64,000 nucleotides of DNA from Paraspadella gotoi (GCA_051294375.1 JBJCIZ010000744.1:686264-750263); one strand, 5' to 3'. Shown: positions 1 to 63,676, counted from the first letter of the stretch. The notes: generated by a model from the letters alone, not told the origin. Made by a program: numbers and translations.

Positions 1-12
1 AATTCTCTCTAT

Positions 13-4036
<4,024 letters not shown>

Positions 4037-37516: not shown

Positions 37517-38008
37517 TTTGGAAAAATTGTAAAGTCAAAAACCGAAGAAAAGAGACACCGAGCAACGAGAAAAAAGAATGGAAGGAGAAAAGAAATGAAA
37601 GAGTGGAGATAAGACAAGTAGAGGCGCCTTTAGTCGAAAGAAGGGAACCATCACCGACGCACGCTCGGTCGCCGAAAACAAATGAACAGTCAATGTTGTT
37701 TTTGTTTTATGGCGTCAGAAAAAAGTCATGATCTAAACGGATAAAAACGCCAAAAAACAGCCACAAAAAAGAGGAAAGTAAAAAGGAACTTACCCTAATA
37801 TATCCGTTGAGATTAGAGCGCGTCCTTTTTCTGAATAAAAATAAAAAATAAATATAAATCAAAATCAATATATGTATAGATTGATTTTAAAAACTTTTAT
37901 TTTTTTCTGAAATTCCAATAAACTTTTTAATATTCGTGTGAATGATGGCTGAGAGCATTTTCGACATTTTCAATGCAAGATATTGCAGCATCTACTGAAC
38001 TGACCTTT

Positions 38009-41000
38009 CTACCCTTTGGACATGATGTGCAGCATAGTCTCGACGTCGACGAACTCTCCGTTGCTGCACTGAGTGAAGGCGGCGTCCATCTTCTCGTCCG
38101 TGAATCCCAAGTCGTAGATCTGGCTGTAGTTGAGCAGCACCGGCCGCGCCTCCATCACCGTTAGGTATCCGTCTTGATCTGTGTCCTGGGAGGAGGATGA
38201 TGAATTGATGATGATAATGATGTTCAATGAGATGACGATTAAAAAAGTTGTATTTTAAGAAATATTGGACAATGAGTGTTTAAAATTAAAGTTCATTTTG
38301 ATTTTTTTGAAAGCAGACAATTAAAACAATTAAAGTGTAATTTAATTTCTTATTTTATTCAATATAATTAAAACTCACTTTGAGATAGAGAGCGTTGGTC
38401 AATTTGGCGAAGCCGATGGCCCAATCTTCAGACTTGTTCGCAGTTTTCATGTTTTTTATCATTTTCGTCGTCATGGTGCCAGACTAGGAATGAATTATTA
38501 ATAATCAAATATAAATAAATTAAAAAAAAACAACCAAAAACGGAATAAATAAATATAGAGAGATTGGCGTTGTTCCTTTTTCTTCATTTTCACCATTTAA
38601 CGCGAGAGTAAGTTTTCTTCTTTACGTTTATACAATCAACGCCAAAAAATAAACAAAAGGGCAATCCTTTGTTTGAATGTCATTGCAATCACAGGGACAC
38701 AGGGACACAGGGAGTATAATTAGTATTAAAAGTAATCTAATGAGGTTTACTGAGAATTAAAAAAACGATATTTTAAATTTTTAAAATTTTTATCAATTCA
38801 CAGTAAACCTCATAATGAGATAGCATTTAATACTGAAGGGCAATCCACTGCACCTGGGCAAAAGTTGAGCCTCTGAACAACGTTGTCGTTGTAAAGTCGC
38901 CGGCGGGTTCGTTGCCGCTGGGTTTGTGCATCGTCCCAATCTGATAGATCAAGGGAGCATTAAATAGTTAAGAACCAAGATTTAATTATTAATTGAGTAA
39001 TAAATAATATGAATAACCTCGACATCATCGGGGAAGGCGGGAAGTCTGACGATTGGATCTCGTCGCCGTCGACCGAATTTGACCAACGCGATGCAGACGA
39101 TCGTGGTGAGGAGGAGGAGGGTCCCGATGAAGGCGGCCAGGAGAACCACGCCGAAGGGTTCTGGAGGAGGAAGGGGGAGTGGGTGGGGGTTTGAATGATT
39201 TGTTTAGGAGAAAAGAGAAAAGTGAAGATAAGTAAAGGGAAGAGAAGAGAAGAAAAGAGCAGAGAAAAATGAGAATAGGAGAGATAAGAAGATAATTGTA
39301 TAAGTTTTAAAAAAGAAACGTTCAATTTGATGATAAAAGAACATTTAAATACGAAAAGTTGAAAGAAAGAAAGAAAAATGAGTCAAGATAAACGAGAAAT
39401 GTAAAATGACTAAAAAAAAGAGGAAAACATTAAGAGAAAAGAAAAAAGCAAATTAACCGGCGAGCAGACTTTTGTCCCCTTTTCCTCCGCCTCGTTTTCG
39501 ATCCCCTTCGCTCCTTTTGTCGTTGAGTTGAATCGTGGATTTTCCAGGGAGAGTCACCTCCACGTCCTTCGTCGCCACGCTGGGGGCGATGCCCTTCGCC
39601 TGAGGGGGGGAAGTCGGTCGGTCGGTTCGATCAATCGATTTATCAATACTATTCGCTAAGGATATAAAATTAGCACTCATGGGAAATGAGAAGTATCAAT
39701 CAAGCAAGCATTTAATTAGATAATATTTGGAAGATAAAGAAATTAATAAAACATCGGGTGCCTCATGAGCACAATCAACCAATTCCCTTCAATAAATCAA
39801 TAAATCAATCAAATCCTACCCTAAGTTGCACGTCGATGACTTTATTTTCGTAGAGGAGCGGATCGAGCTTGACGCTGACGGTGTGGCCGCCGGCGATATC
39901 CTTCATCAAGTGCATCTGCTGACGCTTTAGCAATTCTCCGTTGACGTACCTAAGAATTATAAACGTTAATTTTTAAAATTATAGGATTCAAAGAATATGA
40001 TTATTGAAAAGAGTGAATAGTAATAATAGTAGTTATCTTTAAAAAATACTTTTAAACTGCCTCAATCTTCTACCACGAGATGTTGTTGGCCGGAATCTGA
40101 GGATTCACGTAAATGTTGCACTCGACCGTCACGGTTCCGTCCTGAAAAATTGTGACGAGGATCACAAGTGAACAAAAGTGAGACTCAATACAATTCACCG
40201 TAGATTATCGCCACTCACGTGATTGAGATTCGGTTTGGCTTTTGAATGACAACCGAATTCGGGCCCGTGAACGTAATTCGCTCGCACGATCTCCGTCTTT
40301 GTTGTCCCTTGAAATTAAAATTAAATTGAATTTAAAATTAAAATTCGGCTCTTTGCCAAGTTAAATTATACAGTATAATGTATATTTCATGATAATTGAT
40401 TAGATTAACTGCATTTTAAAGTTCACCTCTCTTCACGTTGTTGGGGACTTCCAAGGTTAGTTGTACGGCGGTGTTAGTCGGCGACAGAATTCCTTTCTGC
40501 GTAAGCGAAGGGAGAGGAAAGCGAATGAGAAAGTACTTGAAGCATAGGGCGACACAACGCCGTATAATGCAAAAAATACAGCAAAGATGCTGCAAATAGA
40601 ATGCGGCACCGACTCGCTCAAAGATGCTGCCAATAGAATACAGCACCGACTCGCTCAAAGATGCTGCAAATAGAATGCAGCACCGACTCGCTCAAAGATG
40701 CTGCAAATAGAATGCGGCAGCGACTCACGCTGAGATCGATCTCGACGACGACGCGTCCCTCTTCTTCCTTCGTCTTCGCCTTCACGCGTTTCTGATCCTC
40801 GAGAATCCAATAGATGTCGTCCTTGATTTCGGAGAGAGGGTTGCCCGTCTGTACGAACGAAATGCGGACAAAAAGTATTAAAGGTCAAAGAGATAAATAA
40901 ATAGAAAGGGAGGAAAGATTAATTAACGCTTGGAGTAACGGAAGGCACTGTCCGCTAGACACTTACAGGCGTAAAGGATAAATGATAAAGAAATTAAAAT

Positions 41001-42043
41001 CCTCGCTACAATATTAAAAAAATGTTTTCGCGACCACAACTGTCGCCACCGCAGCTCATCCGATCTACGACTTTAAGTCTTTCGATATTCGTGGTGATTA
41101 TTTTGTTACTGCCTTCTATCCCTGTTTAAAATGAGATCGATCTTATTTTTTTTCATTAATAATATTCTTTAAAGCCAGTTCCCCCCCCAAAAAAAAAGAC
41201 CGTCTTAGGAGAGCGATCCTCAAGTAAAGGACACAACGACCTCCAGTTGAATGGACAGCGACTCCCACCAACCAAAATCCTAGTTTACTCACGACTTGAC
41301 ACTGGAGGATGAAGTTCTTGTCCGTCCCTCCGATGAACATCAACTCTTCCTTCGGACAAAAGATTTTAGGCTCGAAGCGGACGTTGACTTCGCCGAAGGA
41401 GCAGGAGATGTCCGAAGGGGAAACGTCGGGGCTGGAGGATGGGGGGGGGGAAAGAGGAATCAAGAAAACGTCAAGATAAAGAAAGAAAGAAAGAATGAAA
41501 GAGAGTTACTTTTATCTTTTTCATCTTATTTTTAAAATGGTTGACAGTTTCTTTAATCTTTACCTGAGATACTTTTGACTGACTTCGCAAGTGATTTCCG
41601 CTCCCAAGTCTTCCGGTTTGGCGACGTATTCGTAGTCCGACACCATGTAAGTCTCGTGCATTTGGGGGGAACTGTGAAAGCAAGAATTTTAAAATGACCC
41701 ATAAAAAACAACTCTTATTATGCAACAAAATTAGCGTCAATACTTTGGTTTGATAAAGACGCGTCAACCGTTAAAATGATTAACTTTTCTGGATATTAGT
41801 CAAAATAATAATTAGTTTCATTTGAATGGACTCTTTTAAATTAAAATTAATTCTATTAATATCAATCCATAAAAATGCCTCTCCCCTCACCCTTCGACGG
41901 TCTTGTTGTTCTTCTTCCACACGATCTGCCCGGAACCGTCCTTCGTCAAGTCGGTGATGTTGGCCGAGCAGCGCAACCGTTTGCTCTCGTTCTCCTCGAC
42001 GACCAGCGACGGGGACGGACCCGCCCCCTCGCATTTCGGGGGG
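38009..42043 (-). CDS. Constant region of the clustered Ig receptor gene: 13 exons (42043-41891, 41671-41564, 41431-41293, 40848-40729, 40496-40427, 40307-40219, 40141-40074, 39949-39820, 39599-39458, 39160-39018, 38940-38854, 38483-38379, 38185-38009); Ig2-Ig4, TM, cytoplasmic EF-hand tail; no ATG or signal peptide of its own
   Basis: All junctions are GT-AG and phase-compatible. Translation (S)PPKCEG..LRCSAN..IVW..YEYVAKPEDLGAEITC..SCSFGEVNVRFEPKIFCP..LQCQVTGNPL..LEVPN..YVHGPEFGC..VECNIYVNPQIPANNISWYVNGELLKRQQ..TM PFGVVLLAAFIGTLLLLTTIVCIALV..GTMTTKMIK..GFAKLTNALYLKDTDQDGYLTVMEARPV..CSNGEFVDVETMLHIMSKG* is colinear with P1-P8 from the end of their V domain. The first acceptor CTTCCAG|C CCC CCG is phase 2. 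Confidence 0.88.
40582..40728. repeat. 37-bp minisatellite, 4 copies, at the 5' end of a constant-region intron
   Basis: Unit CAAAGATGCTGCAAATAGAATGC(G/A)GCACCGACTCGCT on +. Confidence 0.85.
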
Positions 42044-42500
42044 CTGGAAGGGGGGGGATAAGGATGGAAATAGGGGGAGGGAAGAATAAAGGGAAGGGTG
42101 AAAATGAAATGATTAGAAAAATTGACCATCCAAATTGTTTCCAACCAACAAGTCCACTAATCCTAAGATTCTCTGTAAAAAATGAATCTATTTTTTCGGA
42201 CCACTTCAATTTTTCTCGAACCACTTTATCCCCCACAAATAAAACCTTATTACGGAAACGAGGAATTCAAAAGGCGAATCTCCGTTGCAGGAAAAAGTTC
42301 CGGAGTCAGAAAAAAATACCGAAGAGATTTCGAGAAGGAAATGGGATTCTTGGTCCTGTTGGATGGACGGCGCCAAATCGAGTAAAACGGTGATTGTTTA
42401 ATGTTTATGATATTAATAGATATAGAACAGTGATAGGTTTGGTCGATACTAATTGAGAAACATCGTATATAAATAGTAATAGTCGTCACATTATGACATC

Positions 42501-42770
42501 TTAAAAGAATAATACAATCGTTTTGACTCTGATTTCGGCCGTCCATCCCTTGCTAAACGAATAGCGAGGCTCTTTGAGGCTGGGATATGGATTGACTCCG
42601 TGAGCGAGAGGTTTCGCCGCTCCTTTATTTGTCCAGAACCACGCCGGAGGATAAGTCGAAGAGCAAGAAAGACGCAACCGAGTTCCACGCAAAACAGTTT
42701 TAGAAATTTTCTTGGCGAAAATCACATTTGGAAATAAAATGAAAAGAAATATGACGAATTTCGTCTCCAT
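42501..42770 (-). pseudogene. Variable exon V1 (closest to the constant region); 3' end degenerate or misassembled
   Basis: METKFVIFLFILF..LSCSSTYPPAWFW..LAHGVNPYPSLKEPRYSFSK, then no DAG.F.C motif and no AG|GT donor; promoter motif at ~42855. Confidence 0.6.
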
Positions 42771-43087
42771 TTTTGAAGCAAAGGCAACGGAAGTCAAGGA
42801 AAAATCTATTCCAACAACTATAAGAGAATGTGGATGATGGAAAGGATTCGGACGTGTAAGGACACCTACCGAGAAAACGAAGAAAAACACGACCGGAAAA
42901 AAACAAAACTTCCGAAGGTAAAATGCTAACTGCAATTTCCATGAATTGAATTATATTTCTGACTTATCAAAATTCTTAGTCGCGTTGAAATTCAAAACAA
43001 GCACGATATGCGATATGAATTCGATGAGTAGTCTTACCTGCATTAGATAATACCGAAATTGCTCTTTCAACACCGAATTGCTAATAC

Positions 43088-43422
43088 CTCAAAACACTTA
43101 GAGTGTACGAAATCGATTTATCGCCATCGCAAATGTAGGTTCCCGCGTCTGAAGCAACAACTGGGTTAATCGTTAGTTCGTAAACGTTGTTCTGTTGTAA
43201 AAAGTTGAATCTCGAATCTTTAAGAGTCGGGTGTTTTTGTCCATTTGTCGCCAGCGTTTTGTATTGGGGTTTGATCTTGGCCCAAGGCGGAGGAAAGGAA
43301 GATTCACACTGGAATGTCGCGCTTGTTGAAACAATTTTGGATTGATTGATTGTTACTGCGACAGTTTTTTCTAAAATGCCCGCCGAAGCGCATAATAAAA
43401 GTACTTCCCACAATTTTAACAT
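43088..43422 (-). CDS. Variable exon V2 (signal + V-Ig)
   Basis: MLKLWEVLLL..FQCESSFPPPW..HPTLKDSRFNF..DAGTYIC..SVL AG|GTATT (phase 2). Confidence 0.88.
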
Positions 43423-43696
43423 TTTAATTCATATATTTTTTACTTGATTCAATTTTTAATAACGCAAAACACGCCCGTAGCCAAAGCGAAAGGAGTTTTT
43501 AGTAACGCAGCGAAGACGTCGAGAATAACGGAACAAAACTTGTAGAGACCTCTGCCGTAAGAAGGCAACAACAGAAAATTTTAAAAGAACTAACTGAGGA
43601 ACTTGAACCTAAGGCTTTAGACTAAATGTTTTTGCCATTCAAGCAGTGACAAAAAAGTGATCATAAATATTGTTTTAGCCATTATATTATGATTAC

Positions 43697-44058
43697 CTAA
43701 TCACGCTTAGAGTGTAAGAGACCGAAATTCGACCGTCGCACACGTATTTTCCAGAATCGGAAAAAGTCACTCGGACGATTTCCAGTTCGTAAACATCGTC
43801 GCGATCGGAAAAACTAAAACGATCATCTTTAAAATTTGGATGCTTAAGCCCATTAACTCCGATAGCTTTGTAGTCGCCCAATTTCGGACCAAGTTTTGCC
43901 CAGGGCGGAGGAAAGGAAGATTCGCATCGAAACTTGATGGTGGAGCCGGAAATAACGACGACGGGGTTGGACGTCGCATCGGAAGATTTCGGAATCGTGA
44001 AGAGAAAGAAAAGCATAAGGAGTGTAATCGACCAAGGACTTTTGATATTGATTCGCAT
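43697..44058 (-). CDS. Variable exon V3
   Basis: ..FRCESSFPPPW..HPNFKDDRFSF..DSGKYVC..SVI AG|GTAAT. Confidence 0.88.
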
Positions 44059-44369
44059 CGAGTTTAGAATATTTATGCGGGACTTAAGTTGTTGAATTTG
44101 ATAGGAAGTGCCAAGGCGTCAAGGCGAATAGTAATTCATGCTTTGATTAAGACAGCAGAGACTCCTTCGAGAAATGCAATAAATAGCGCGAAGAAAATAA
44201 AAGGGCAAATTCTGATAGTTTCCCCCCATTTACGACGCTAATTCTATTCTATATGTATTGGAACTATGGCTATGGAGTTTTTTTAATTCCGGGATTAACA
44301 AATTGGCGATATAACTTTAATTCAATCAATTTATTTTCCAAATAATAAGTTAGATTATTTTGATTTTAC

Positions 44370-44708
44370 CTTAAAACACCGAGAGTGAAAGTAATGGATT
44401 CGTCTCGCGTCGCAAACGATATTTTCCGGAATCGGAAAGACTGACTCTCTCATGGAGAGTTTATAAACATTGGTCAGAGCAGAAAAGCGAAATCGTTCAT
44501 CTTTGAAAGAGGATGCTTTCGGCCATTCATGGCCAGAGTCTTGTATCGCGCGGATTCGACTTTTGGCCCAAGCCGGCGGAAAAGAAGAGTCGCATCGAAA
44601 AGAGACGCTCGAACCCGATATGACGGCGCGATTGAGGGAAAGAGAGAGAATTTCTCGCGTCGAAAAAGTCAGAGAAAAGAGAAAGAGAATTTCCGACGGT
44701 GACATCAT
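44370..44708 (-). CDS. Variable exon V4 (frameshifted in this assembly)
   Basis: MMSPSEILFLF..FRCDSSFPPAW..FKDERFRF..; ends TTA AG|GTAAA. Confidence 0.72.
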
Positions 44709-45037
44709 AGTGACGGCGAGTAAATAACTACTTTCACAACAACACAGAGGATGGACTTTCAATGAAGAAAAACGAAGCAGAAAAGCAAGGGATGATGAAG
44801 ATCAGTAGAGCCTCCCTGCGTTTAAAATGGAAATCAACACCAAGAAAAAAGACAATTGCACATTCGGGAAGAAAAAGAGTAAAAAACGAAAAGCATCATA
44901 TGAATTATATGTTCAATATTGTTGTATCTTATGTACTTCGCAGCCATACGGAGGGCAGGCACATTTTTTATTTCCAATTTACCAAGTCTAATTTTTGAAT
45001 AATAACAAAACGCCGGATTTTGAGCATCAAATTTTAC

Positions 45038-45384
45038 CTCAGGAACGCTGAGATGTAAGAAAGGGAAGAGTCGCCATTGCAAACGTATTTTGCAGAATCG
45101 GAAATGACGACGCGAATAATCTCAAGTTCATAAAGATTTTTAATATTCGAAAATCGAAACCGATCATCTTTAAAGTTGGGGTGTTTTCGCCCATTGGCCG
45201 AAAGGGCCAGATATTCCCCTAATTTCGGATTGAGTTTTCCCCAAGGCGGAGGAAAAGAGGAATTGCATTGAAACTTCACGGTGGAACCAGCAATGACCGC
45301 AACGTCATTGGCAGCGACGGATAGGTTGATTGTCACAGAAAGAGCAACCAGCAGAAATTCCGCAAAAGTTGATGAACGACACAT
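45038..45384 (-). CDS. Variable exon V5
   Basis: MCRSSTFAEFLLVAL..FQCNSSFPPPW..HPNFKDDRFRF..DSAKYVC..AFL AG|GTAAA. Confidence 0.88.
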
Positions 45385-45599
45385 TTTAATAATTTCAGTT
45401 TTTGAAACGAAGATCGGCAGCTCGGGGAAAACTACCAAAAAGTCGTGAGAAAAGTAGGGAGCAGAGTGTATGATTACTATGATTAGTATCAGTAGCGCCT
45501 CTTCCCGGAAAACACAAAAATTATAGATCTCAGAAAAAAAACAAAGGGCAACTGATATCAGAACGAACTTTTTTCCCCATCCATTTAATATTGGACTAC

Positions 45600-45934
45600 C
45601 TGACGACGCTCACGATATAAACGCTGGACTCGTCTCCTTCGCAGATGTACTTCCCAGCGTCGCTCAAACGCGCATCGACGACGGTGACGAGGTAGACGTC
45701 ATCTCTACGACCGAATCGAAAACGAGGCTCGTCCCATTTCGGGTGACGCTTCCCGTTGACGCCGATGGTTCGGTAGTCTTCGTTTCGCGGTCCAACTTTC
45801 GACCAGGGAGGCGGAAAGGACGATGGGCAGGAAAGAAGGAAAGTGGAGCCGAGAGAGACGGCGAGCGGTTTGGACTCTTGACCGGAAGAGACGGCGAGGA
45901 TTGACAAGAGGACGAGAAGAATCATTATTGTCAT
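45600..45934 (-). CDS. Variable exon V6
   Basis: MTIMILLVLL..LSCPSSFPPPW..HPKWDEPRFRF..DAGKYIC..SVV AG|GTAGT. Confidence 0.88.
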
Positions 45935-46307
45935 TTAAAAGTAAATGATTTATTTTAATGATTTATTTATTAATGATTTATCGAAATCGGTGTCGTTAAC
46001 TTAGTATTTCAAAGAAAATTCTTAGAGCCGAGAAAAGCCCAAAAATAAAATTTGACAAACAACATTCCCTGATTGGACGAGAACAAGTAGAGACGTCCCA
46101 CGGAAAAAAAACCCAAAAAGCATTGATGACAGAAACAAAAGGAAAACCGAACACTAAAAAATGTGAGTGAAAGAGAAAATAGAATGAAAACATTGCAATA
46201 TATAATAATAATACATGGATTATGGAAGCTTCAGACTTCTGCTTAAATTTTTTTCTCCAAAATATTGTTTATCTAATTCATTTGTTAGTTATACACAATC
46301 AGAATAC

Positions 46308-46648
46308 CTAACGACGCTCAACACCGTCGAAATCGATGTCTCCGATTCGCAGACAAATTTCCCAGCGTCTTCGAGCGAAACCCTTTTGATTCGCAAGAAA
46401 TACCGAGATCCTTCGCCGACGAAAGAATATCTAGGATTTTTCAATTGTGGATGGGGAGTTAATCCGTTCATGGCGATCATCTTGTACTGATTCTGTTTGC
46501 CGATCCAAGTCCACGGAGGCGGAAACGAAGATGAGCAGGAAAGCTCGACGTCGGCGCCCAGAAAAGCCGTCAGTTTGAAGTCGGAAGCGAACGAGGTCGT
46601 CATCGAGAGGAAAATAAGGATAAAGCGGGAAAAGATCGAAAGATTCAT
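46308..46648 (-). CDS. Variable exon V7
   Basis: MNLSIFSRFIL..LSCSSSFPPPWTW..HPQLKNPRYSF..DAGKFVC..SVV AG|GTATT. Confidence 0.88.
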
Positions 46649-46929
46649 ATTTTGATAGAGAGAGTGAGACAGCGACGAAATAAAATTGGGAAAGAAAGCA
46701 GATAAGAATAAACAGGGATAAGAGACAAGCGATTCGGACCGGTAGAGACCTCCAGCGGTTTGAAATAAAAACAAAAGCGTCCACAGGAGATGGTTCAAAC
46801 TTTGTATTTGACTGAAGATATACGTATATGAAAAACTTCAGGAGAAAACAGTATATCTCTTAAAAATTAAGGTTTAACAATACCAATGAAAACCGTGGCA
46901 CAACCACAACACCACAACGTCTTAAATAC

Positions 46930-47270
46930 CTTAAAACATTAACTATCGTTTCGAGAAAAGCATCTCCTTGACAAACGAATTTCCCAGCGTCCTCGGGTTT
47001 AACGTTGGATATTCGTAAAATGTATTTGTTTTCTTCCGCCATAAAATTGTAACGGGTATTTTGAAGATTGGGATGACGCTTTGTTCCAGCATAGGCAAGA
47101 GTCTTCTGTTGTCCGGCTTTGGGGCCGAACCAGGCCCAAGTAGGTGGAAATGATGAAGAACATGTCACATCGATATTGGTGCCTCGAAAAGCACTCTTTG
47201 TAACTGAACACGATGACAACGACAACGAAATTGTAACAAAAAATGCAAGAAAGTGAAAATGCCACGCCAT
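46930..47270 (-). CDS. Variable exon V8
   Basis: MAWHFHFLAFF..VTCSSSFPPTWAW..HPNLQNTRYNF..DAGKFVC..NVL AG|GTATT. Confidence 0.88.
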
Positions 47271-47625
47271 CGCGTTTTAAGGGACAAGAGAGAAAATTAG
47301 ANNNNNNNNNNTGCCACGCCATCGCGTTTTAAGGGAAAAGAGAGAAAATTAGAGAATAACTTGAATAGAAAAAGTCATTCATGAACTGATACATACGAGC
47401 AGAGACCTCAAGAGGATGAAAATGATAACGAAAATAAACAGAAGGGCAAACTTGGAAGAGCTTAAAGTTAAATACTATTTTTTTCGGCAGTATTTTTTAA
47501 ATGACGATAATAAAAGATAAAGAAAAGTTGAGATACGCAAAATTAGTTCTCGTTCTTGTTATTAACATTCTAAATTAAATTACGATCAAACTTCTAAGAA
47601 ATATTAATTATCATTGACTCCATAC

Positions 47626-47972
47626 CTTACGACGCTCAGCAAAGACGCGACCGAAGCGTCGCCTTCACAAACAAACTCCCCCGCGTCAGAAACCTCGACT
47701 TTCTCGATGAGAAGGACATAAACGGATTCTTTTTGCGAAAAAGAATATCTGGAATTCTTAAATCGCGGATGCCGAGTTTTTCCGTTTGATGGTCAGCATC
47801 TTGTCTTTCCTCCGTTGGCCAAACCAGTTCCAAGGCGGAGGAAATGAAAGATTCGCATTTTAAATTCAACCGAGGAATCCGTGAGAACCGTAGTTTTAAA
47901 TCCACGACGGCGTGAACCGCGCGGGTAATTATGAAAAGTGCAACCACGAGAGCAAAACAGTTTTGATATCAT
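47626..47972 (-). CDS. Variable exon V9 (frameshifted in this assembly)
   Basis: MISKLF..AVHAVVD..KCES..PPW..HPRFKNSR..DAGEFVCEGD..VV AG|GTATG; further copies at ~52868-53217 and 63035-63156. Confidence 0.72.
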
Positions 47973-48135
47973 TTTGAATTTCGTTTGTGAATGAATCGGG
48001 AATGAATTTGTAGAAATTTATCTCGAGTCTAACCAGTAGAGACGCTTAAGCGGGGAAAAAGAAAACTGAAATGTGGAGACAAAAGAACGCGCCCGATCTG
48101 TTAATAACAAAAAAGGAAGAAGTTTTTTAACCAAC

Positions 48136-48483
48136 CTGACAACGTAAGAACGAATTGTTGATAAACTCTCCATCGCAAACAATCTTTCCCGCATCCGAGG
48201 ATTTGACGCTCGAAATTGAAACGACGTATTTGTTTTCACTTTTGTTGAATAAAAACGTGAATCTTTCAAGTTCGGATGTGGTCGCGTTCCCATAGAAGGC
48301 CAGGTCCGATGCTTCCCTCTTTAGGACCGAACCACGACCAAGTCGGCGCGCAAAGGAGGAGAGACAAATAAAGTCCACGGAGGCTCCAACCAAAATAGTT
48401 TTGATATCAGAAGCGTCAGAGAGTACAAAGTTTATTTTGTAAAGTAATAAACAGTAAAAAGCCACATAACTGTGAAAAGCCAT
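48136..48483 (-). CDS. Variable exon V10 (frameshifted here; cleaner copy at 63320-63676)
   Basis: MAFHSYVAF..FICLSSFA.TW..HPNLKDSRF..DAGKIVC..VV AG|GTTGG. Confidence 0.75.
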
Positions 48484-48766
48484 GATTTCTAATTTTCCGA
48501 TTGAAAACTATTTGGACGACTTGGGGAGCGAATCTAACTCGTATAGACGCCTGTTGTCGTATCAATCTTTTCAACGGAAAAACAAAAGGTCTAGAGGATA
48601 GACACTAGACACAAGACAGACGAAGAAGTTTATATCTTATTGAATGTAATTTCAAAGAGGCTCGCTCCATCGCAGTGTACAATAGTGAATTGATATATTC
48701 GATAAGAAAAGAATAGGTTTATTATTATTCATAAACAAATAAAATAAACCATTAGCTTTCTCTTAC

Positions 48767-49095
48767 CTCAAAAACGGCGACTAGATAAACCCGTCGACGA
48801 ATCTCCTTCGCACACATATTTCCCCGCATCCCCCAACGCAACATTGGAAATTTTCAGAGAAATAAACTGATTGAACTTTATAAGGAAACCGCGGATCATC
48901 CCAGTTTGGATGCTTTCCCCCGTTCAACCCTATGATGCGATATGTTCCGCTGCTCGCGCTGCTTTTCGACCAGGGAGGTGGAAACGAGGAGGAACATTTC
49001 AGCTCGACGTTGGTCCCCATAATTAAGCTTAGTTTAGATTCCTCGCATAAAGTCACAAAGACAAAGGTGGAAATTAAAATTATTTGGCGAAACAT
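48767..49095 (-). CDS. Variable exon V11 (indels near the 3' end)
   Basis: MFRQIILIST..LKCSSSFPPPW..HPNWDDPRF..DAGKYVCEGD..TTG AG|GTAAG. Confidence 0.78.
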
Positions 49096-49372
49096 CCTTT
49101 GAGATAATAGTACAGAAAAAGATGCAGCACTTTGCTAGGAGAAATTTTGATCACCGACTCAAGAATCAGACACATGGAGCCACCACACTTTGAAATCAAC
49201 CAATTAAAAAACAAAAAGACACGGGACTACCAACCAACAAGTTATTCTTTTTTGAAAACGATTTCATAAGAACAAATTAAAATTCATCATTTATTAGAGA
49301 AAAAAATGAAAGAAATAAAGGAAGAAAAAAATAAAAATATAAAGAAAGAAAGACAGAAAGAAAAGTCAGTAC

Positions 49373-49698
49373 CTAATTAAGTTAAGAACGATCTGATGCG
49401 AAACATCTCCATCACAGACGAATTTCCCCGCATCAGATTTGTTCAAATTTGAAATGAACACGGAATACTCATCGTTCTCCTTTTGAAAAACATAACGAGA
49501 ATCCTTGAGAATTTGGATGCTTATTTAGTTTCCCGAAGCAAGGGTTTTATGTTGGTCCTGTTTAGAGCCAAACCACAGCCAAGTCGGAGGAAACGTCGAT
49601 GAGCAAGATATTTTTACTGAAGAGTTAACAAGTTTTGTGATTACGGTTTGTTTTGAGGAAACCAAGCCCAAACTGATGAAGAAAAGGATTTTATACAT
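49373..49698 (-). CDS. Variable exon V12 (small indel)
   Basis: MYKILFFISLGLVSS..ISCSSTFPPTWLW..KTLASG..DSRYVFQKENDEYSVFISNLNKSDAGKFVCDGD..NLI AG|GTACT. Confidence 0.78.
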
Positions 49699-49956
49699 TT
49701 TGCTCGAAAGAAAAATATTGCAGTTAATAAAAATCAGACAAATTGAAAAAGGATACGGATATGTTGCGACACCAAACGGGATAATAAAAAATTAAAGTCA
49801 ACAAATGCTCAATTCCGATCTATGCATGAATAACTAAACTGAAAAACAGATTATAACAATGATATACATACTTTGAAATTAATATATATGGCATAATTTT
49901 TTTTCCCTGAATCATAATGCTTTTAATTTTTTTATGCAAAGAAAACTGAAACTTAC

Positions 49957-50080
49957 CTCAAAACAGAAACAATGTATGTCACGGGAGAGTCACTGCCACA
50001 GACATACTTCCCGGCGTCGGCCAATGTTATTGCCGAAATTTTAATTCCATAATTCGAACCATCGTTAGCAAAGAGAAAAG
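49957..50080 (-). pseudogene. 3' fragment of variable exon V13 at the duplication breakpoint
   Basis: ..ANDGSNYGIKISAITLADAGKYVCGSDSPVTYIVSVL AG|GTAAGT; matches the 3' end of the exon at 58577-58951. Confidence 0.75.
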
Positions 50081-50087
50081 AGACGAG

Positions 50088-55093: not shown

Positions 55094-57350
55094 GACACAA
55101 TGAAAAATGGCGTAACGTTACTGTTCCGTGCATAAAAAAATTCACTGTTTAATATTATTATATTTCTTTATGTTTTGAAACAGTTATAGTTATCATTATG
55201 TATGAATCCAAAATATCAATGCAAAATCTTTTTTGTTTTTTAATATGACTGAATATAGGGTGAAAGATGATAATTTTATTTTTAAAAAGTTTACTACTTC
55301 ATTCAATTTATTCATAGAATTGTAAATAGAAAAAATAAAAAAAAATAATAGTACTAATAGTTAGTGTTACCGTCTCAAATAGGAATGAAAAAAAAAACCA
55401 TCTCATTTAAAAATTCGATCGGGAACGATGGGGTAACTAAGGCTTACCAATGCATCCTCCAAGCCGATTGTTCTCTCAAATAATTTTTTTTATTTTATAC
55501 ATTTGAGGGAAAAAAAGAAAATTTGGAAATGCAGGTTGCAGAAAGGGTACAGATAATCTGGACTTATTGACATGATAACCATGACCTTTTATATCTTTGT
55601 GAAATGGGGCAGTAAAGAAATCTAAAAAATTTCCATCATTTAAGTCAGTCAATGAACCCTTCTAATGGGCTATTAGAGAAATATTTTTTCTTAATAAAAT
55701 GGATGATAAATAACATAGAATTAAATTCCTTGCTATATTAAAAAAAATTATCAATAACAATTTAAAACTCAATAAATGTTTGCTTTGTCAATATGTTACC
55801 CAGCTATATAAAATTTTTTTACAACTTATTATGATAAACAAGCAGTGTGTCAAGCTTTAGTTTGCAGTTAAAAGATAAATGAAAAATAACGATTTTTTTT
55901 CACAGACAAGAAGGTAGATGTGGCAGCCTGTTTATATCAAGCTGAAAAACATTTTTGTATTTATTAATTTTTAATATTTAAAAATACATTTTATCAAGCT
56001 ATAACATAAAATTTTTTTGCTTGTTTTTTACCTTAACCTTGAAAAATAATAAGCAATTTTATGGAAATAAAAAAAATTTAATAATAAACAAAATGTAATT
56101 CCGTTTTCCTTTTTCAAATTATAAAAGAAAAAGAAAAAAATAATATGCCTTCATTGAAATTTTTAAAAAGCAAAAAACTGTTATACTTTTAACTCCTGAT
56201 TTAAACAAAGCTGTGCAAAGATTTATGGATTTAATTTAAATAAAACCTTTTAGAAAGGTGTCACATGATAGGCTTTAATTTGATACGCACATCCACCTTG
56301 CTACCTCTTTTCTTTCAAAATTTATAAAAAAATAACTTTTTTTTAAATTACGCAGTACAAATCTTTGTTAATAAAAAATTTCGGCAAAGCGGGAGTATCT
56401 CACTATTTACTAATTGACAATACTTAAATTTCAAAAAATAAACTTGAAGAAAATTTTTTGTCAATTTGAGATATATCACTTTCAATGTACCCCATGTCTA
56501 TAATAATTTATTTATTTATTTCCCGCCAAAAAAGCCTAATTAAGAAAAGTTGAAATTTTTTTTCAAAAAATTGTGGGAAAAAAATATTTGTCCGACTTGC
56601 TCATTGAGAATAATGTTTTGCAAGAAAATCAAAATATCAAAAAATAAAAAAAAATCCGCCTCTGAAAAATCGAAAAGCTAGAGGCTGATTTTTTAGATTG
56701 CAAAATTTTTTCCTGACTCATACCATTATTCCAAAGTTTCAAATATTTTTTTCCAACAAACATTCAATCAATTTTTTTTTATTAATTTAAAATGTTTTAA
56801 TGATGTTGTTTTTGTTTGAAAGAATTAGAAAAAAAAGAGTGAAAAATAGTAATTATAATAAGTTTTTTGAAAATACCATTTAAAATATTAAATAATTAGA
56901 CCAAGGGGAGTAAGCAAGACTTCCCATTCATAAAGAAATTGAAATGAATTTGTCATATTGTTTATTTAAGATTAATTGACTAATTACAAACAAATGATTC
57001 ATATAAATTTAGGAAATGATGGGTAAAAAATATTCATCTGGGTCTCGGTTAACTATTAAGGTTAGTCGTTAAAGTTTTGTTTTAAAATAATATTAATATT
57101 TTTTGCATTTTATAAAGCAATGGTCCTAAAATTTTGTAAGCGTTTCGACTATAATTGCTTCCTTTTTTACTATTTTGATCTAGTTAGCTTTTTTGTTGAA
57201 TGGTCAAGGGTTATGGTCAGATACAGTAATGTCGCAGTAGTCTATATCCGCACATATTACCAAAAGTAATGATCAATTAATTTGGCTCAGAACAATTAAA
57301 GGGAGCAATATCAACACGAGACGTTACGGCCACGTTATTTTCATTGTGTC
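55094..57350. mobile_element. Non-autonomous DNA transposon (2257 bp), TIR GACACAATGAAAA.., 4-bp TSD ATAC
   Basis: gatATAC[GACACAATGAAAA...TTTTCATTGTGTC]ATACatacttt; the empty site gatATACatacttt is present in the other copy at ~49861; AT-rich, no long ORF. Confidence 0.88.
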
Positions 57351-57424
57351 ATACATACTTTGAAATTAATATATATGGCATAATTTTTCCTGAATCAAAT
57401 AATGCTTTAAAATTTTTTTAATGC

Positions 57425-58570
57425 TCCTTGTAATAGGCTGCCTCATCTCACTTAGAATTTTCGATGTTTCTTTGTCCAAAACCGCGGGAAAAGGATCTGG
57501 TTTCTTAGGCTTGTCGGCGCGTTGGAGGGCCTCCTGGCAGCGCGGGTGCCGCAATGGCGGCCGTCGACGTGCAGCGCGAGGAGTCAACCTCCTGCCTGTG
57601 AGTTGGCGGTGCCTCAGCCAATCGTCGTAATTCTTCCCCTGGCTCCCGTGAGTCTGAGACTCAAAATGGCGGAAAAAAGTGAAGACGTTTGATCTCGGAG
57701 GCGTCGTCTCGATCTCCTCGTCGCGATGCCTGGCGATGGAGAACGATATCCTCGCCTCGAGTTCTGCTGCGACGCGAAAGGAATGTGACTGAGATCGAGT
57801 GGTTGTTCCTGTGGTGGGCAACGGCATCGATAAAACTGCCGCGGCGTTTGCGGCGTCGCTTCCGGTGACGCTGCGGCGTCGAATCTGACTGTTTAAGGTT
57901 GCGTGGCGCCCTTGGTTAAAGCACGGCGCTTTGTTCTTAGTCGGGTGCACCAATAGTGGCGAATTCACGGTCAAACGTCCGCCACCTCTCTTTCAACGGC
58001 GCTGATGAGACCTCTAGCGGCGTTTGGAATCAAAGAGTTTATCTGAACAGTTTTTCCTGTTCTGTAAAATTGTCGCGGAACAAAGTTCTTATTTTGTTCA
58101 CAGCTTAAAAATCATTACCTTAATAAAATAATGCAAAGCATATAGATATTCGATATATAGGAATATCTATATGACTCAACAAGCATAAAGTAATAACAGT
58201 AATAATATTAATTGGTAACATTAACATGAAATAGCATTAATACTTAGGAAATAATCGTTTAAAAATCAATGTAGAAGAAGTTCTTTGTAAGAAAGACAAA
58301 GGAAATAAAAGTGATAGAATGAAAATTGTATACACTACTACTAGTGTTACCTAGTAAAAAACTATAAATGATTATAATGTTCTTTTGTTTCCACATGAAT
58401 ATACTATCATGTTATCCATAATTAGCACAATTGGAATATCTTATGGTAAGGCCTGAAGTGTGGAAACCACTAAATATAGTTCGTCACAACATTTCCGGGA
58501 TCGAATCCCCGAATGACTCTTTTTTATTTTAGTTGAGTTTGAAATTAAATAAGGCGGGATAGAATCCCAC
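57425..58570 (-). mobile_element. ~1.15-kb insertion with a GC-rich, possibly gag-like fragment
   Basis: Absent from the equivalent site at ~49937-49950. Contains most of ORF 57366-57974 (..FTFFRHFESQT..YDDWL..) and a PBS-like TGGTGCACCCGA; the retroelement identity is only a guess. Confidence 0.4.
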
Positions 58571-58576
58571 ACTTAA

Positions 58577-58951
58577 CTCAAAACAGAAACAATGTAAATG
58601 TCACGGGAGAGTCACTGCCACACGAACATACTTTCCAGGCGTCGCCATGTGTTATTTGCCGCAGATTTTAATTCCATAATTCGAACCATCGTTAGCAAAG
58701 AGAAAACGTGAATTTTTCCAGTTAGGATGTTTTTTGCCATTAGCACCAAATGATTTGGTAATCGTCTTTCCAAGGCCCCGCTCCTCTTGGACAAGGAGGT
58801 GGAAAGAGAAATGNNNNNNNNNNNNNNNNNNNNNNNNNCAAGTTAACTCGCCATCAGCGCCAAGGAAAAAATTAATATGCTTATCATCGGCAGCAGCAAA
58901 ATACGAGGCTATGCTGCACGAGATAAAAAAGATTGTGGGAAAAAGATTCAT
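58577..58951 (-). CDS. Variable exon V13 (gap and indels)
   Basis: MNLFPTIFFISC..FLGADGELT[gap]..GANGKKHPNWKNSRFLFANDGSNYGIKI..; the donor reads GAG|TTAAGT here but GAG|GTAAGT in the 49957 copy. Confidence 0.72.
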
Positions 58952-59238
58952 TTTAGTATGAAATATTTTTACAGAATAAGTTGGATAGGTTTTCCTTTCA
59001 GTCAACCATGAAGTAAATTTTAGAAACCGACTCCTAGAGACGCTTTGGGATTAAAAAAAAATAATTGCGGAAAACAAAAGGTAACAGAAAAATATCCGAA
59101 AAATAATTTACCTCTCACCCAAAAATATTTTTAAAAACTTGGGCATTGATAAATATTAAATAAGCATAAAAATCCATAATGCATTCTAATTCAGACCGAA
59201 GTGAAAAAAAATTTAAAAAAGATATCACATAAAATTAC

Positions 59239-59573
59239 CTGACAACATTAAGAATAGTAACTTCGTATTCATCGCCATCGCATACAAACTTTCCCGCGTC
59301 GCTTGACTTTACGTTTGTTATTTTTAAAAAGTACTCATTTTGATTTTTAGTGAAATCGTATCTTGGCTCGTTGAGGTTTGGGTGAGCTTTAACACCGGCG
59401 ATGGCCAAGGTTTTAGGACGACCCTCTTTTCTGCTATACCACATCCAAGGTGGCGGAAAAGAGGATTTACAAGATATCGCGATGTTTGTTCCCAACAAGG
59501 CGCTGAGATTAACCAAGCAACAGCAAGGACACAAGATAAAAATAAGGAAATAAGCGAAAATAATGATCTTCAT
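59239..59573 (-). CDS. Variable exon V14
   Basis: MKIIIFAYFLIF..ISCKSSFPPPWMW..HPNLNEPRYDF..DAGKFVC..NVV AG|GTAAT. Confidence 0.88.
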
Positions 59574-59869
59574 CTTGTAATAAGAAACGGAATTAATATT
59601 AAACAGAAAGACTAAAAAATGGACAAGTCGAAATATACAGCAAGACAGATGAAGACCACTAAGCCCGCCTGGCGTTGAAAAAGTCAATTTAGGATAAACA
59701 AAATGCTGATCAACTCAAAATTACTTGAAGAATAGCTTATAATCTAGAACTTATAATGAATGAATACATAAATTTAATGAGAAATTTGTAAACGAAGAGC
59801 GAATTAAAAAAAAACAACAACCCCTGGAAACCATAAAAAATAAGAAATAAATAAAAAGTGTCCGATTAC

Positions 59870-60204
59870 CTCACAACATTCAAGATTGAAGTGTCGTATG
59901 AATCGCCGATGCAAACAAAGGTACCAGAATCGGAGAGATGCACATTTGAAATTACGATGGAATAAAGGTTTTCCTTCTTAGTAAAAGCGTATCTGGGATT
60001 TTTATTGGTAGGGTGCACATCAGTACCAGCAACGGCCAGTATAAGGTTTTTTCGTTGTTTCGGCCCAGTCCACTGCCAAGTCGGAACTATCTTCGATCGA
60101 CAAGTTAAATTTACTCTCGATCCGGTTACAGAACTGATGACAGAACCTTCTGATTTAATGACAACCAGGCTGACAAGCAACAACGAAGTCAAAACGCTCT
60201 TCAT
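59870..60204 (-). CDS. Variable exon V15
   Basis: MKSVLTSLLLV..LTCRSKIVPTWQW..HPTNKNPRYAF..DSGTFVC..NVV AG|GTAAT. Confidence 0.88.
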
Positions 60205-60908
60205 ATTTAGTTTTGTAATCGTCACACTTAAATAGGGTGTGAAAAAGCCTGAATCATACAAATAGAGACACCTTATGGGCCAAAATGTACATTATAAAAC
60301 AAAAGACAGAATCGGAAGAAAAGACAAGATAGTTATGATTCGGTATACAAACAAACGGTTCATAACCTACCTTATAATAACGCATATTTATCGTTGAAAC
60401 TTCTAAAAACGATAGTAGTAAGCATATTGCTTAGAACTTATTCCTGAGAAATAAATACCTTACTACATTTAGCACGATCTGCAATATAGTAAATTTGAAA
60501 ATCACCTTTCCATCAACTTTTTATTTTACTTCAATTTAATGATTCCTTCCCATTATTCGATATTGTGGGTTATATAAGAAGTCTGGCTGTGGAAGACTTT
60601 AGTCTAAAATGTAAATAAAATGAATAAAGTTGAAAAGTGAAAACTTCAAGATTAAAAATATTAATATATGATGGTAAAAATCTATTGTCCGCCTCAATTC
60701 TATATTTTAGCTATTAATTATTTTGACGTTCAAAAATGTAAGAATTGTATTTTTTTTGCCAATTTACCACATGTAGATTTCTCTAGTGGTCTTCTTCTAT
60801 CATTCATATTGGTTGTACCATTTCATCAAAAAATTTTCATCTTTGTATAACGTCGTCTACTAGAACACGACTTCAGTTAGAAAAAAAATCGATAAATTAT
60901 TAATCAAA

Positions 60909-61241
60909 ATGAACTCTTATTTACTTTGCTCTTTTCTTTACAAATTTGTACCTTGTTGCCACCACAACAAACTGCTTTATTACTGGGTTCAAAATATGGA
61001 AATAACATGTGATTCTCTGTTCCCCTACTTGGAGCTGGGTGAGGAGGGAAAGAAATCAAACCGTAAAACTATATTGCTTTTCCGGAACGAATCCACATCC
61101 AAAATTGAATGAACCTCGCTATGAATTTTCGCGAAAACAGGATTCTTATCAATTAAAAGTTTCGGGGTGTAACTCCCTCGACCGCTGGGAGATTTCTGCC
61201 ATGGGGAAAATGATGAAACCTTTATTCTAAATGTTAGTCAG
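60909..61241 (+). CDS. Inverted variable exon Vi1 (frameshifted)
   Basis: MNSYLLC..EITCDSLFP.TWSW..SGTNPHPKLNEPRYEFSRKQDSYQLKVSG..; ends GTC AG|GTAGAG. Confidence 0.7.
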
Positions 61242-61534
61242 GTAGAGATTTATTTTATTAATAGTAGACGACCTGAAAAATTGATTACTCCTTCACAGTT
61301 AAAAATTATATCTGGATGATTAAACTTGTTTTGTCACTTATAGCTCATTTAAAAATTGTGGATCAATTTTTTTTTATTTTTTGACTTTTGTAAACCACCC
61401 TCAATCACTTTTGTTTTACTTCTTTGTTGAGCAAAAAGGTCGCGAAGATGTCTCTACTAGGTTTCTTCCCTGTCGCCTCAGAGATGTTTGATGTCCAGTC
61501 TTTCAGAAAAAGAAACGTTTCTACTAATAACAAA

Positions 61535-61869
61535 ATGGGTTTCATCTTTTTTTTTTCTTTTCCTTTCTGGTTTTTTGCCTTTTCTCTTCGCTAATGTAAA
61601 CATTTCAACTTTTTAATTGGATCAAACTGATAAACTGGAATGTACTTCTTCCATCCCTCCCACCATGGTCAAAGTCGGGTCACCACGAGTTGGAGACTAT
61701 CGTAAATAGGGGTCAATGGGAAAAAACATCGAAGTTCGACGATTCGCGTTACTCTTTCTCAATGATGGTTCTCGTTATATCATAGAAATTTCCAATGTTA
61801 AATTAACTGATGCTGGAAAATTCATTGTGAAGGAGATTCGGTATCAGCCTATTTTGTCACAGTAATGAG
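61535..61869 (+). CDS. Inverted variable exon Vi2 (frameshifted)
   Basis: MGFIFFF..LIGSTDKLECTSS.PPPWSK..DDSRYS..ISNVKLTDAGKF..VTVM AG|GTGAG; promoter motif ..AGATGTCTCTAC at 61446-61457 in matching orientation. Confidence 0.72.
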
Positions 61870-62067
61870 GTGAGAACCAACCTTAGCGTTCGTTAAAACC
61901 AAACTACGATGGGGTTGTCTTTTTTCTATGAGACATAAACTCTGAGAAACTGTTGGTGTCGCTATGAGTTTGATTCGGTGCTTGATTGGAATCTTTAAAA
62001 GGCGTTTTTCCATTGTTGGTAAATTTGAAAGAACTCGATAGAAATAAAATCTAAACCATTCGTGACA

Positions 62068-62388
62068 ATGAAACGGTTATTATCTTTTCTTATTTTTCAT
62101 TTGTTTTCTGTCTCTGTTTTCTCATCTTCCGAGCCTCTCGTGAAAACAGTTCTCATTGGTTCTCCGCCGAAATCTCCTCGTTTCCAAGTTTCCCCCAGTT
62201 GGTTGTGGATGGGGTCCGAAGCAGACAGCGTGCCACGACTTTAAGCTTACGCCGGCATTCAACGAACATCCAAATCATAAAGATCCACGATATGATTTTT
62301 TAAAAGACCGATGATCGATACAGCATAACCATTACGACACGTCAAGTCCTGACGCCGAAAATTTGGTTGTGACGGGACGCCTACAGCA
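62068..62388 (+). CDS. Inverted variable exon Vi3 (frameshifted, runs into a gap)
   Basis: MKRLLSFLIFHLF..VKTVLIGS..FPP.WLW..HPN.KDPRYDF..YSITI..VKS.DA..CDG. Confidence 0.62.
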
Positions 62389-62550
62389 NNNNNNNNNNNN
62401 NNNNNNNNNNNNNNNNNNNNNNNNNNNNNNNNNNNNNNNNNNNNNNNNNNNNNNNNNNNNNNNNNNNNNNNNNNNNNNNNNNNNNNNNNNNNNNNNNNNN
62501 NNNNNNNNNNNNNNNNNNNNNNNNNNNNNNNNNNNNNNNNNNNNNNNNNN

Positions 62551-62934
62551 CGCAGACAAACTTTCCGGCGTCTGAGAATTTGAGGGAAGAGAGAAGCAGA
62601 GAATAATTGGATCCGTTTTGAAGGAAAGAGAAACGAGGANNNNNNNNNNNNNNNNNNNNNNNNNNNNNNNNNNNNNNNNNNNNNNNNNNNNNNNNNNNNN
62701 NNNNNNNNNNNNNNNNNNNNNNNNNNNNNNNNNNNNNNNNNNNNNNNNNNNNNNNNNNNNNNNNNNNNNNNNNNNNNNNNNNNNNNNNNNNNNNNNNNNN
62801 NNNNNNNNNNNNNNNNNACTTTGGACTGGGACGAAGACCGTTCATGGTCAGCGTTTTATAATCGCTTCTTTTGTGACCGAACCACATCCAGGGTGGAGCA
62901 AAGGACGATTTGCAGGTTAAGGAGATTTTTTGTC
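62551..62934 (-). CDS. Variable exon V16, fragments between gaps
   Basis: QKISLTCKSSFAPPWMWFGHKRSDYKTLTMNGLRP[gap]PRFSFLQNGSNYSLLLSSLKFSDAGKFVC. Confidence 0.7.
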
Positions 62935-63319
62935 NNNNNNNNNNNNNNNNNNNNNNNNNNNNNNNNNNNNNNNNNNNNNNNNNNNNNNNNNNNNNNNNNN
63001 NNNNNNNNNNNNNNNNNNNNNNNNNNNNNNNNNNGATTCGCATTTAAATTCAACCGAGGATCCCGTGAGAACCGTAGTTTTAAAATCCACGACGGCGTGA
63101 ACCGCGCGGGTAATTATGAAAAGTGCAACCACGAGACAAAACAGTTTTGATATCATTTTGAATTTCGTTTGTGAATGAATCGGGAATGAATTTGTAGAAA
63201 TTTATCTCGAGTCTAACCAGTAGAGACGCTAAGCGGGGAAAAAGATACAATTGAAATGTGGGAGACAAAAGAACGCGCCTCTGTTTATAACAAAAAAGGA
63301 ATAAGTTTTTTAAGCCAAC

Positions 63320-63676
63320 CTGACAACGTTAAGAACGAATTGTTGATAAACTTCTCCATCGCAAACAATCTTTCCCGCATCCGAGGATTTGACGCTCGAA
63401 ATTGAAACGACGTATTTGTTTTCACTTTTGTTGAATATAAAACGGGAATCTTTCAAGTTCGGATGTGGTCGCGTTCCCATAGAGGCCAGCGTCCGATGCT
63501 CTCCCTCTTTAGGACCGAACCACGACCAAGTCGGCGCAAAGGAGGAGAGACAAATAAAGTCCACGGAGGCTCCAACCAAAATAGTTTTGGTATCAGAAGC
63601 GTCAGAGAGTACAAAGTTTATTTTGTAAAGTAATAAACCGAGTAAGAGAGACCACATAACCTGTGAAAAACGCCAT
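63320..63676 (-). CDS. Variable exon, third copy of V10 (63035-64000 repeats ~47850-48750)
   Basis: ..FICLSSFAPTWSWFGPK..HPNLKDSRFIF..DAGKIVC..LNVV AG|GTTGG. Confidence 0.8.

Follow-up and report, generated by a model that had tools for sequence, protein, structure and literature searches.

How can one locus present many different recognition domains on a single receptor tail? The question is raised by a 64,000-nucleotide (nt) stretch of the Paraspadella gotoi assembly (GCA_051294375.1 JBJCIZ010000744.1:686264-750263), called the window throughout. A first, sequence-only reading had proposed that about 19 alternative first exons, each encoding a signal peptide and one V-type immunoglobulin (Ig) domain, are spliced onto one 13-exon constant region. 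Examined here, this is a real and conserved Ig receptor locus of variable-first-exon layout, with partial RNA support. Nineteen distinct cassettes encoding a signal peptide and a V-type Ig domain (42246-62934) lie upstream of one shared receptor tail, an array far beyond chance. It is very probable that they are used as alternative first exons, and there is a good chance that each has a promoter of its own; a homophilic cell-identity code is a more tentative proposal, held here with some doubt. The overall explanation that fits best, and that is considered probable, is that V first exons with their own promoters are spliced onto the shared tail to give products acting as a cell-recognition code.

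Variable cassettes

The window combines GC-rich exons with AT-rich introns and is interrupted by seven N gaps. Two duplicated tracts, 50090-55093 and 63035-64000, were left out of the cassette count, and the 19 distinct cassettes that remain (Table 1) agree with the number first proposed. From V1 to V13 the donor-to-donor spacing was 510-842 nt with a mean of 643, in line with the period of about 0.6 kb noticed earlier. An AG/GT donor was present at 24 of the 26 minus-strand candidate ends examined and at two more on the plus strand (61241, 61869), while the background rate of AGGT was 0.0026 per position; the two ends without it (52193 and 58578) both belonged to noisy second copies. Counted by distinct cassette, 18 out of 19 displayed the common AG/GT donor that had been claimed, V19 running into an N gap. 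For 15 of these 18, at least one copy placed its F-strand cysteine exactly 14 codons ahead of the AG; V4, V16 and V18 missed this spacing through indels or inversion.

Nine cassettes displayed an unbroken frame from ATG to donor with a phase-2 end, which places start, signal and Ig domain in one exon. V exons were 335-362 nt long and carried their own G strand as well as the donor. Pfam V-set was matched by all eight intact cassettes scanned (E 1e-7 to 2e-4), four of which reached the curated cut-off; the description of each cassette as an ATG, a signal peptide and a V-type Ig domain applied to all nine intact frames. V1 was indeed degenerate, being interrupted by an element with inverted-repeat arms. 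This insert (42361-42548) resembled a miniature inverted-repeat transposable element.

Constant region

All 12 introns of the constant region were GT-AG, and its 1531 nt formed a single open frame with one stop, giving 509 residues after the junction codon. The joined V and constant model was collinear from end to end with six downstream single-exon paralogues at 27-34% identity, and these paralogues do read through the V/constant junction, as had been stated. Pfam supported Ig1-Ig3 in paralogues, and the fourth of the four Ig domains first described was assigned from its Cys/Trp pattern. Constant exon 13 alone had no Pfam match, while paralogue tails matched DUF5580_C above the cut-off. EF-hand loops have 12 residues, with acidic residues at 1, 3, 5 and 12 and Gly at 6, and this pattern was found in the tail sequence.

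Two details of the initial model needed correction. The constant region had been said to lack a start of its own; there was an in-frame ATG 29 codons upstream of the 42043 acceptor, although it lay within the intron and the RNA contig was spliced there. The 13 coding exons stood, and at least one further exon, in the 3' untranslated region (UTR), has to be added. It matched the loose end of the contig at 38005 and had a further GT donor, beyond which about 447 nt of the contig lay elsewhere. This remainder was too long to fit before the upstream motif of the first paralogue (37634), and the paralogue array may therefore be nested inside a 3'-UTR intron of the constant gene.

RNA evidence

RNA data were contigs of one run, X1, classed as RNA by guess, which show presence and not absence. 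A contig of 2473 nt skipped 11 of the 12 constant introns at their predicted GT-AG ends and is therefore spliced RNA; the twelfth intron (40308-40426) was absent from the X1 joints listed, one joint having been dropped at a repeat there. This contig, one piece of which starts at 38005, left the genome at 42045, and its next letters translated to a V-end-like peptide with a profile score of 19.5. The profile was built from 47 V ends (median 20.2), only one of 19,769 random 30-mers of the window scored as high, and the score covers the first 30 of the 454 nt remaining in the contig. These 454 nt would accommodate a V exon together with its 5' UTR. One V-type end is spliced to the constant region at 42043.

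A second contig carried about 30 nt of constant exon 1 (an estimate from bin depth), joined at 42045 toward a 21-nt match in V3, which hints at a second, different V joined to the constant region. Further pieces covered several cassettes (Table 1); the bins containing V1, V4, V5 and V11-V12 had no X1 coverage. A 4612-nt contig matched 59204-59240 over 37 nt, which was dismissed as a chance resemblance.

Relatives in other data sets

A profile of the nine intact V exons was run against 1.84 billion representatives and gave 1087 matches; 51 of the best 150 were shorter than 200 residues. These are sequences and not a species count; the contigs that bear 27 of them, all from ENA, measure 0.5-2.3 kb. 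Position 14 after the F-strand Cys was occupied by Arg or Gly in 47 of the 51, and what came next was either a stop (37) or a residue whose codon begins with T (10); the other four were truncated or unreadable. We infer that this signature would be the AG/GT donor read through by the gene caller.

A tree of 45 outside relatives (six fragments of the 51 being left out), nine window V exons and six paralogue V domains gave starred outside sister groups to five of the nine window exons, paired V3 with V5 and set the paralogue domains on a separate branch. Its 87 columns limit resolution, and the columns diagnostic of subtypes, which rest on tree-defined groups, are descriptive only. That V subtypes are conserved would fit fixed specificities, of the kind used in adhesion or wiring, better than an immune repertoire in rapid change.

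The same architecture might nevertheless do an immune or allorecognition job, with V domains that recognise either ligands of foreign origin or self markers that are polymorphic, and with a V set that varies between individuals. The V sequence in both junction contigs was missing from the assembled cassettes, as would be expected under presence/absence polymorphism; arrays of V-set Ig superfamily (IgSF) genes serve allorecognition in Hydractinia (PMC9546547); and one Atlas lead was named histocompatibility ligand (0.81, a lead only). Yet V subtypes common to outside sequences are unlike repertoires under fast birth and death, RNA-covered V exons differed little from the assembly (5 differences in 170, 8 in 266), the tail ends in an EF-hand, and the missing V may simply lie beyond 64000 or in gaps. 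On balance this alternative appears rather unlikely, and a role in cell identity is preferred.

No named homologue emerged from the V, tail or Atlas searches, in keeping with the first impression of an unrecognised gene family. The search for longer proteins holding the V domain found only nine generic Ig proteins, of sialoadhesin or Robo type, among 8000 scored candidates; the tail search retained none of 15 candidates, and the Atlas held no usable tail match. The nearest Atlas clusters (Fasciclin-3, Kirre-Neph and nectin-like, with the histocompatibility ligand) scored 0.80-0.81, where scores below 0.9 are leads only, and the nectin/Neph likeness first suggested persists as such a lead. One sequence from another source, L001, encoded at 230-919 a transmembrane (TM) segment and EF-hand tail with a DUF5580_C match, 30% identical to a paralogue over 183 residues, and is a more distant family member. 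L002 was ruled out as a relative, being a TPR gene with a short chance match. In P0140, a distant V relative, the Ig domain was seemingly split by a mid-domain insert, unlike the single-exon cassettes. No such locus was described in the literature searched, most subscription papers and bioRxiv supplements lying outside its coverage; the available part of PMC12460157 held no mention of CTCF, protocadherin, Dscam or 'Ig domain', and its three supplements, as available, no V-set, immunoglobulin, DUF5580, CTCF or Dscam.

Upstream motif and promoters

Motif discovery found an 18-bp motif 74-169 nt before the start positions of 15 cassettes, two of these starts being approximate. Its information was 15.8, compared with 10.6-11.5 in eight shuffles. 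A scan of the window recovered it at two held-out plus-strand cassettes, making 17 cassettes in all, and at five of the eight paralogues. No match above threshold was seen for V18, V19 or the other three paralogues, and weaker matches occurred elsewhere in the window. The 11-letter core occurred 11 times against 0.67 expected, ten of these upstream of a family ATG. A strong plus-strand match was also seen at 17102-17119 (score 19.1), with no family gene recognised downstream. In a post hoc comparison with the CTCF consensus of PMC6746451, the 22 motif sites agreed on average at 8.8 of 14 positions (p 0.012-0.014 versus shuffles), so that the motif may loosely resemble a CTCF site.

A single upstream promoter could instead give one long pre-mRNA, with the first exon picked by spliced-leader trans-splicing or by alternative splicing. 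Cassettes and paralogues are tightly spaced and co-oriented, and some invertebrate lineages commonly use trans-splicing and operons (PMC12460157); this host is placed among them by guess. A pyrimidine run with an acceptor-like AG between motif and ATG was nevertheless found at only two of 19 starts, which argues against trans-splicing, and the motif also precedes stand-alone paralogues. One shared promoter is accordingly held improbable, and separate promoters are preferred.

Weighing of the evidence

Several points weigh against the use of the assembled cassettes as first exons of this receptor. Apart from the guessed class of the run, ten of the 19 cassettes were broken in the assembly. A 23-mer search allowing 3 mismatches did not find the V of the main junction contig anywhere in the window, and the contig did not align to 42246-50085 (at 90%) or 58400-64000 (at 80%). 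In the second contig unknown letters stood between 42045 and the V3 match, whose 21 nt fall below the 30-nt caution of the tool. In two contigs the sequence runs past a V donor into intron (61193-61374; to 60444), as might be seen with unspliced or secreted forms or if the run contained DNA. When unspliced, six of the nine intact cassettes stop within two residues, so that a clean secreted protein could result. Two core positions of the CTCF consensus are not matched by the motif, in a comparison chosen post hoc.

The V joined in the main contig thus lies outside the assembled set. V19 was ruled out, the contig having no alignment on 62552-62934, and the V in question may lie beyond 64000 or in gaps. 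Junctions from each V donor to 42043, which the sequence-only reading had named as a check, did not appear for any assembled donor among the X1 joints listed. What stands of the proposed architecture is a V-type end spliced at 42043 in RNA, donors kept in relatives and a motif at each of most cassettes; from these we infer the splicing of the 19 named cassettes.

The read-through contigs also bear on another possibility, that the cassettes are mainly separate secreted single-Ig genes of which one or few splice to the constant region. It would agree with unspliced frames ending within 1-24 residues past the donor in the nine intact cassettes and with the 37 of 47 relatives that stop directly after Arg. 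On the other side, all ten non-stopping relatives continue with a T-first codon, and the AG/GT was kept in all 18 readable cassettes, neither of which would be demanded by selection acting just on where the protein ends; only four of the nine had A(A/T)TAAA within 260 nt after the donor, and intron retention after variable donors has been reported for sDscam as well (PMC4835542). Separate secreted genes are therefore very improbable, and variable first exons remain the preferred explanation.

Assembly of the locus

Tract 50090-55093 (minus strand) was, by self-comparison, an indel-rich copy of 44904-49867 (V5-V12), with 86% identity and 301 gap openings, and is likely a second haplotype or an unpolished long-read fill. 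Tract 63035-64000 (minus) was a third copy, of 47850-48750, holding the 5' part of V9 and an intact V10, and 49951-50079 repeated 58571-58706. Aligned with RNA, the 48.3-kb copy of V10 showed five gaps, and the copy at 63.5 kb none over 63444-63638 (195 nt); the frameshifts of the former are therefore assembly noise, and its indels probably assembly errors.

One RNA contig linked plus-strand 62266-62375 to minus-strand 60482-60444, where AG/GT completes V16. The assembly therefore carries the block 60483-62388 in the opposite orientation to the RNA source, and it is likely that all cassettes point one way; the inversion that breaks V16 may be a misassembly or a real inversion or haplotype polymorphism. 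The 3' end of this plus-strand cassette, earlier thought lost in a gap, was found on the minus strand (Table 1). Of the two copies of the V13 intron, just one contained the tract 55100-58570, about 3.5 kb without V exons. Besides a GC-rich frame of 208 aa (57366-57992) with no Pfam match, this tract also carried the upstream motif, at 58020.

Such disorder (a noisy 5-kb duplicate, a third copy, seven N gaps and an inversion) could suggest that the array itself is an assembly artefact. Intact cassettes, however, were just 32-66% identical in protein (36 pairs), RNA pieces lay on several of them, and counterparts were found in other data sets. An artefact is thus extremely improbable, and the array is taken as genuine.

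Features of the window

Table 1. Positions of receptor features in the window
Feature	Position	Strand	Remarks
Constant region	38005..42043	-	13 coding exons; Ig2-Ig4, TM, cytoplasmic tail; phase-2 acceptor at 42043
Constant exons 1-7	42043-41891, 41671-41564, 41431-41293, 40848-40729, 40496-40427, 40307-40219, 40141-40074	-	
Constant exons 8-13	39949-39820, 39599-39458, 39160-39018, 38940-38854, 38483-38379, 38185-38005	-	
Constant exon 10	39018..39160	-	predicted TM helix; hydrophobic run aligned with paralogue TM
Constant exon 13	38005..38185	-	canonical EF-hand loop pattern; stop 38009-38011; UTR donor after 38005
3'-UTR exon	37794..37830	-	AG and GT flanks; matches loose end of contig at 38005
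V1	42246..42770	-	interrupted by element of ~190 bp; inverted-repeat arms 42361-42387 / 42522-42548
V2	43088..43422	-	intact signal and V-Ig exon; RNA piece 43202-43371
V3	43697..44058	-	intact
V4	44370..44708	-	assembly frameshift, donor intact
V5	45038..45384	-	intact
V6	45600..45934	-	intact; RNA piece 45841-46010
V7	46308..46648	-	intact
V8	46930..47270	-	intact; RNA piece 46994-47259
V9	47626..47970	-	indels in this copy; start approximate
V10	48136..48483	-	indels in this copy; intact copy 63320-63657
V11	48767..49095	-	indels
V12	49373..49698	-	indels
V13, 3' part	49957..50079	-	donor intact; same cassette as 58571-58951
V13	58571..58951	-	noisy copy with N gap
V14	59239..59573	-	intact
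V15	59870..60204	-	intact
V16, 3' end and donor	60459..60482	-	AG/GT at 60459; joined by RNA contig to plus-strand 62266-62375
V18	~60909-61241	+	in inverted block; indels
V17	~61535-61869	+	in inverted block; indels
V16, 5' part	~62068-62388	+	in inverted block; indels
V19	62552..62934	-	broken by N gaps, donor unreadable; RNA piece 62818-62934
18-bp motif, example	46741..46758	-	~70-170 nt before cassette ATG
Other motif starts	42872, 43558, 44171, 44821, 45508, 46103, 47415, 48052, 48557, 49190, 49779, 59050, 59675, 60278	-	
Other motif starts	61441, 61949	+	
Paralogue array	18066..37516	-	eight tandem full-length paralogues, mostly single-exon
Paralogue starts	near 37516, 35334, 32936, 30547, 28000, 25747, 23128, 20443	-	

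Paralogue array and neighbouring genes

Paralogue ectodomains were 36-79% identical and their tails 93-96% (six pairs), with Ig1 domains at 37-65% (15 pairs). Degenerate codons for identical tail residues were the same between paralogues in only 54-60% of cases, pointing to purifying selection rather than recent conversion as what would keep the tails near-invariant. A single-sequence fold of a paralogue gave a mean pLDDT of 39 and was not used. The paralogue at 37516 displayed a frameshift near 35930, and that at 30547 a diverged end near a gap at 28550. An element of about 425 bp with 15-nt terminal inverted repeats (23868-24292) interrupted a paralogue tail; GT is supplied by one end, and immediately beyond the opposite end comes an in-frame AG, so that a transposon may be acting as an intron.

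Outside the receptor family, a FAM135-like gene occupied 1-4033 on the plus strand. Its exon was 88-91% identical to three sequences; within the best 120 of 2848 matches, named animals did not exceed 77%. In a one-gene tree of 28 rows the FAM135 of a full-length relative fell outside the arthropod branch (support 92/97), on a long branch. The host was accordingly taken as a bilaterian, a chaetognath by guess. Two transporter-like coding stretches on opposite strands (12214-13996) were monocarboxylate-transporter-like by reading alone.

Proposed mechanism

Each cassette would be transcribed from its own promoter, marked by the upstream motif, and the cap-proximal V donor would be spliced to 42043, as in clustered protocadherins and sDscam. 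The receptors would differ in Ig1 and have Ig2-Ig4, TM and EF-hand tail in common. Ig1 would determine what the receptor binds, probably in a homophilic manner, and so let cells such as neurons tell self from non-self; the EF-hand tail is predicted to bind calcium, and the products would act as a cell-recognition code on one signalling tail. The single-exon paralogues would add ectodomains on a second, near-invariant tail, in the manner of protocadherin-beta genes. That the full protocadherin logic has been reinvented on an Ig scaffold in a non-arthropod, with CTCF-like element, stochastic choice, beta-like array, homophilic neuron code and calcium-binding tail all together, is unlikely.

Comparison with known systems

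Clustered protocadherins share with this locus single-exon variable cassettes, shared constant exons and a conserved upstream element. They also include, as protocadherin-beta, a neighbouring set of single-exon full-length genes, which parallels the paralogue array. Their domains are cadherin repeats, whereas none was found here by Pfam in eight V exons, three full paralogues and the constant exons. Nor was fn3 matched there, and the first statement that the family is neither Dscam nor cadherin is supported. A protocadherin variable exon holds the whole ectodomain and TM; here it holds the signal and Ig1 only, with TM in constant exon 10. CTCF binding and stochastic choice are features of clustered protocadherins, while the CTCF likeness here comes from motif sequence. 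The conserved protocadherin element, CSE, is about 22 bp long (PMC3333863), compared with 18 bp for the present motif.

Chelicerate sDscam-alpha is likewise built of tens of tandem 5' cassettes, each with one variable N-terminal Ig and a reported promoter of its own, followed by common exons (PMC4835542; PMC10084454). Its cassettes have two exons, in contrast to the single exon of the nine intact cassettes here, and its protein, with three Ig and three fibronectin type III (FNIII) domains, derives from Dscam Ig7; paralogues in the window had no fn3 match at E 0.1, and the constant region has no room for FNIII because it is collinear with them. sDscam-alpha cassettes expand species by species, whereas subtypes here are common to outside sequences and the tail has an EF-hand. 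No Dscam chain was found among the best 60 of 1242 and of 2730 PDB matches, no direct comparison with sDscam having been made.

Tandem variable first exons on common exons also occur in UGT1A and GCNT2 (PMC1885805), which are enzymes without homology to this family. Fasciclin-3, Kirre-Neph and nectin-like proteins likewise display a V-type Ig1, further Ig domains and one TM. An EF-hand tail or variable first exons are not known in those families. The Alr family of Hydractinia likewise consists of invertebrate IgSF surface proteins that form a cluster and whose domain 1 is of V-set type; they are encoded by separate full genes and have ITAM/ITIM tails (immunoreceptor tyrosine-based activation or inhibition motifs) and atypical Ig motifs, in contrast to the canonical Cys/Trp, shared constant exons and EF-hand tail found here (PMC9546547). 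As for V(D)J recombination, the signal heptamer occurred twice in the window against 1.8 expected, neither time in the V array; there was no separate J, and V exons have their own G strand and donor.

The locus works like sDscam-alpha and clustered protocadherins yet belongs to neither, and it likely represents an unnamed Ig family and an independent origin of their architecture. Single-locus repertoires for self-recognition have been described as vertebrate protocadherins, pancrustacean Dscam1 and chelicerate sDscam (PMC10084454). To judge by the present locus, the promoter-choice design may also have arisen in another animal lineage, built there on an unrelated Ig protein and packed into a compact 0.6-kb period. 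Promoter choice, CTCF-type elements and homophilic codes thereby become testable as a repeated solution, and a cytoplasmic EF-hand, which is not described for such receptors in the literature searched, would, if true, be a new signalling route.

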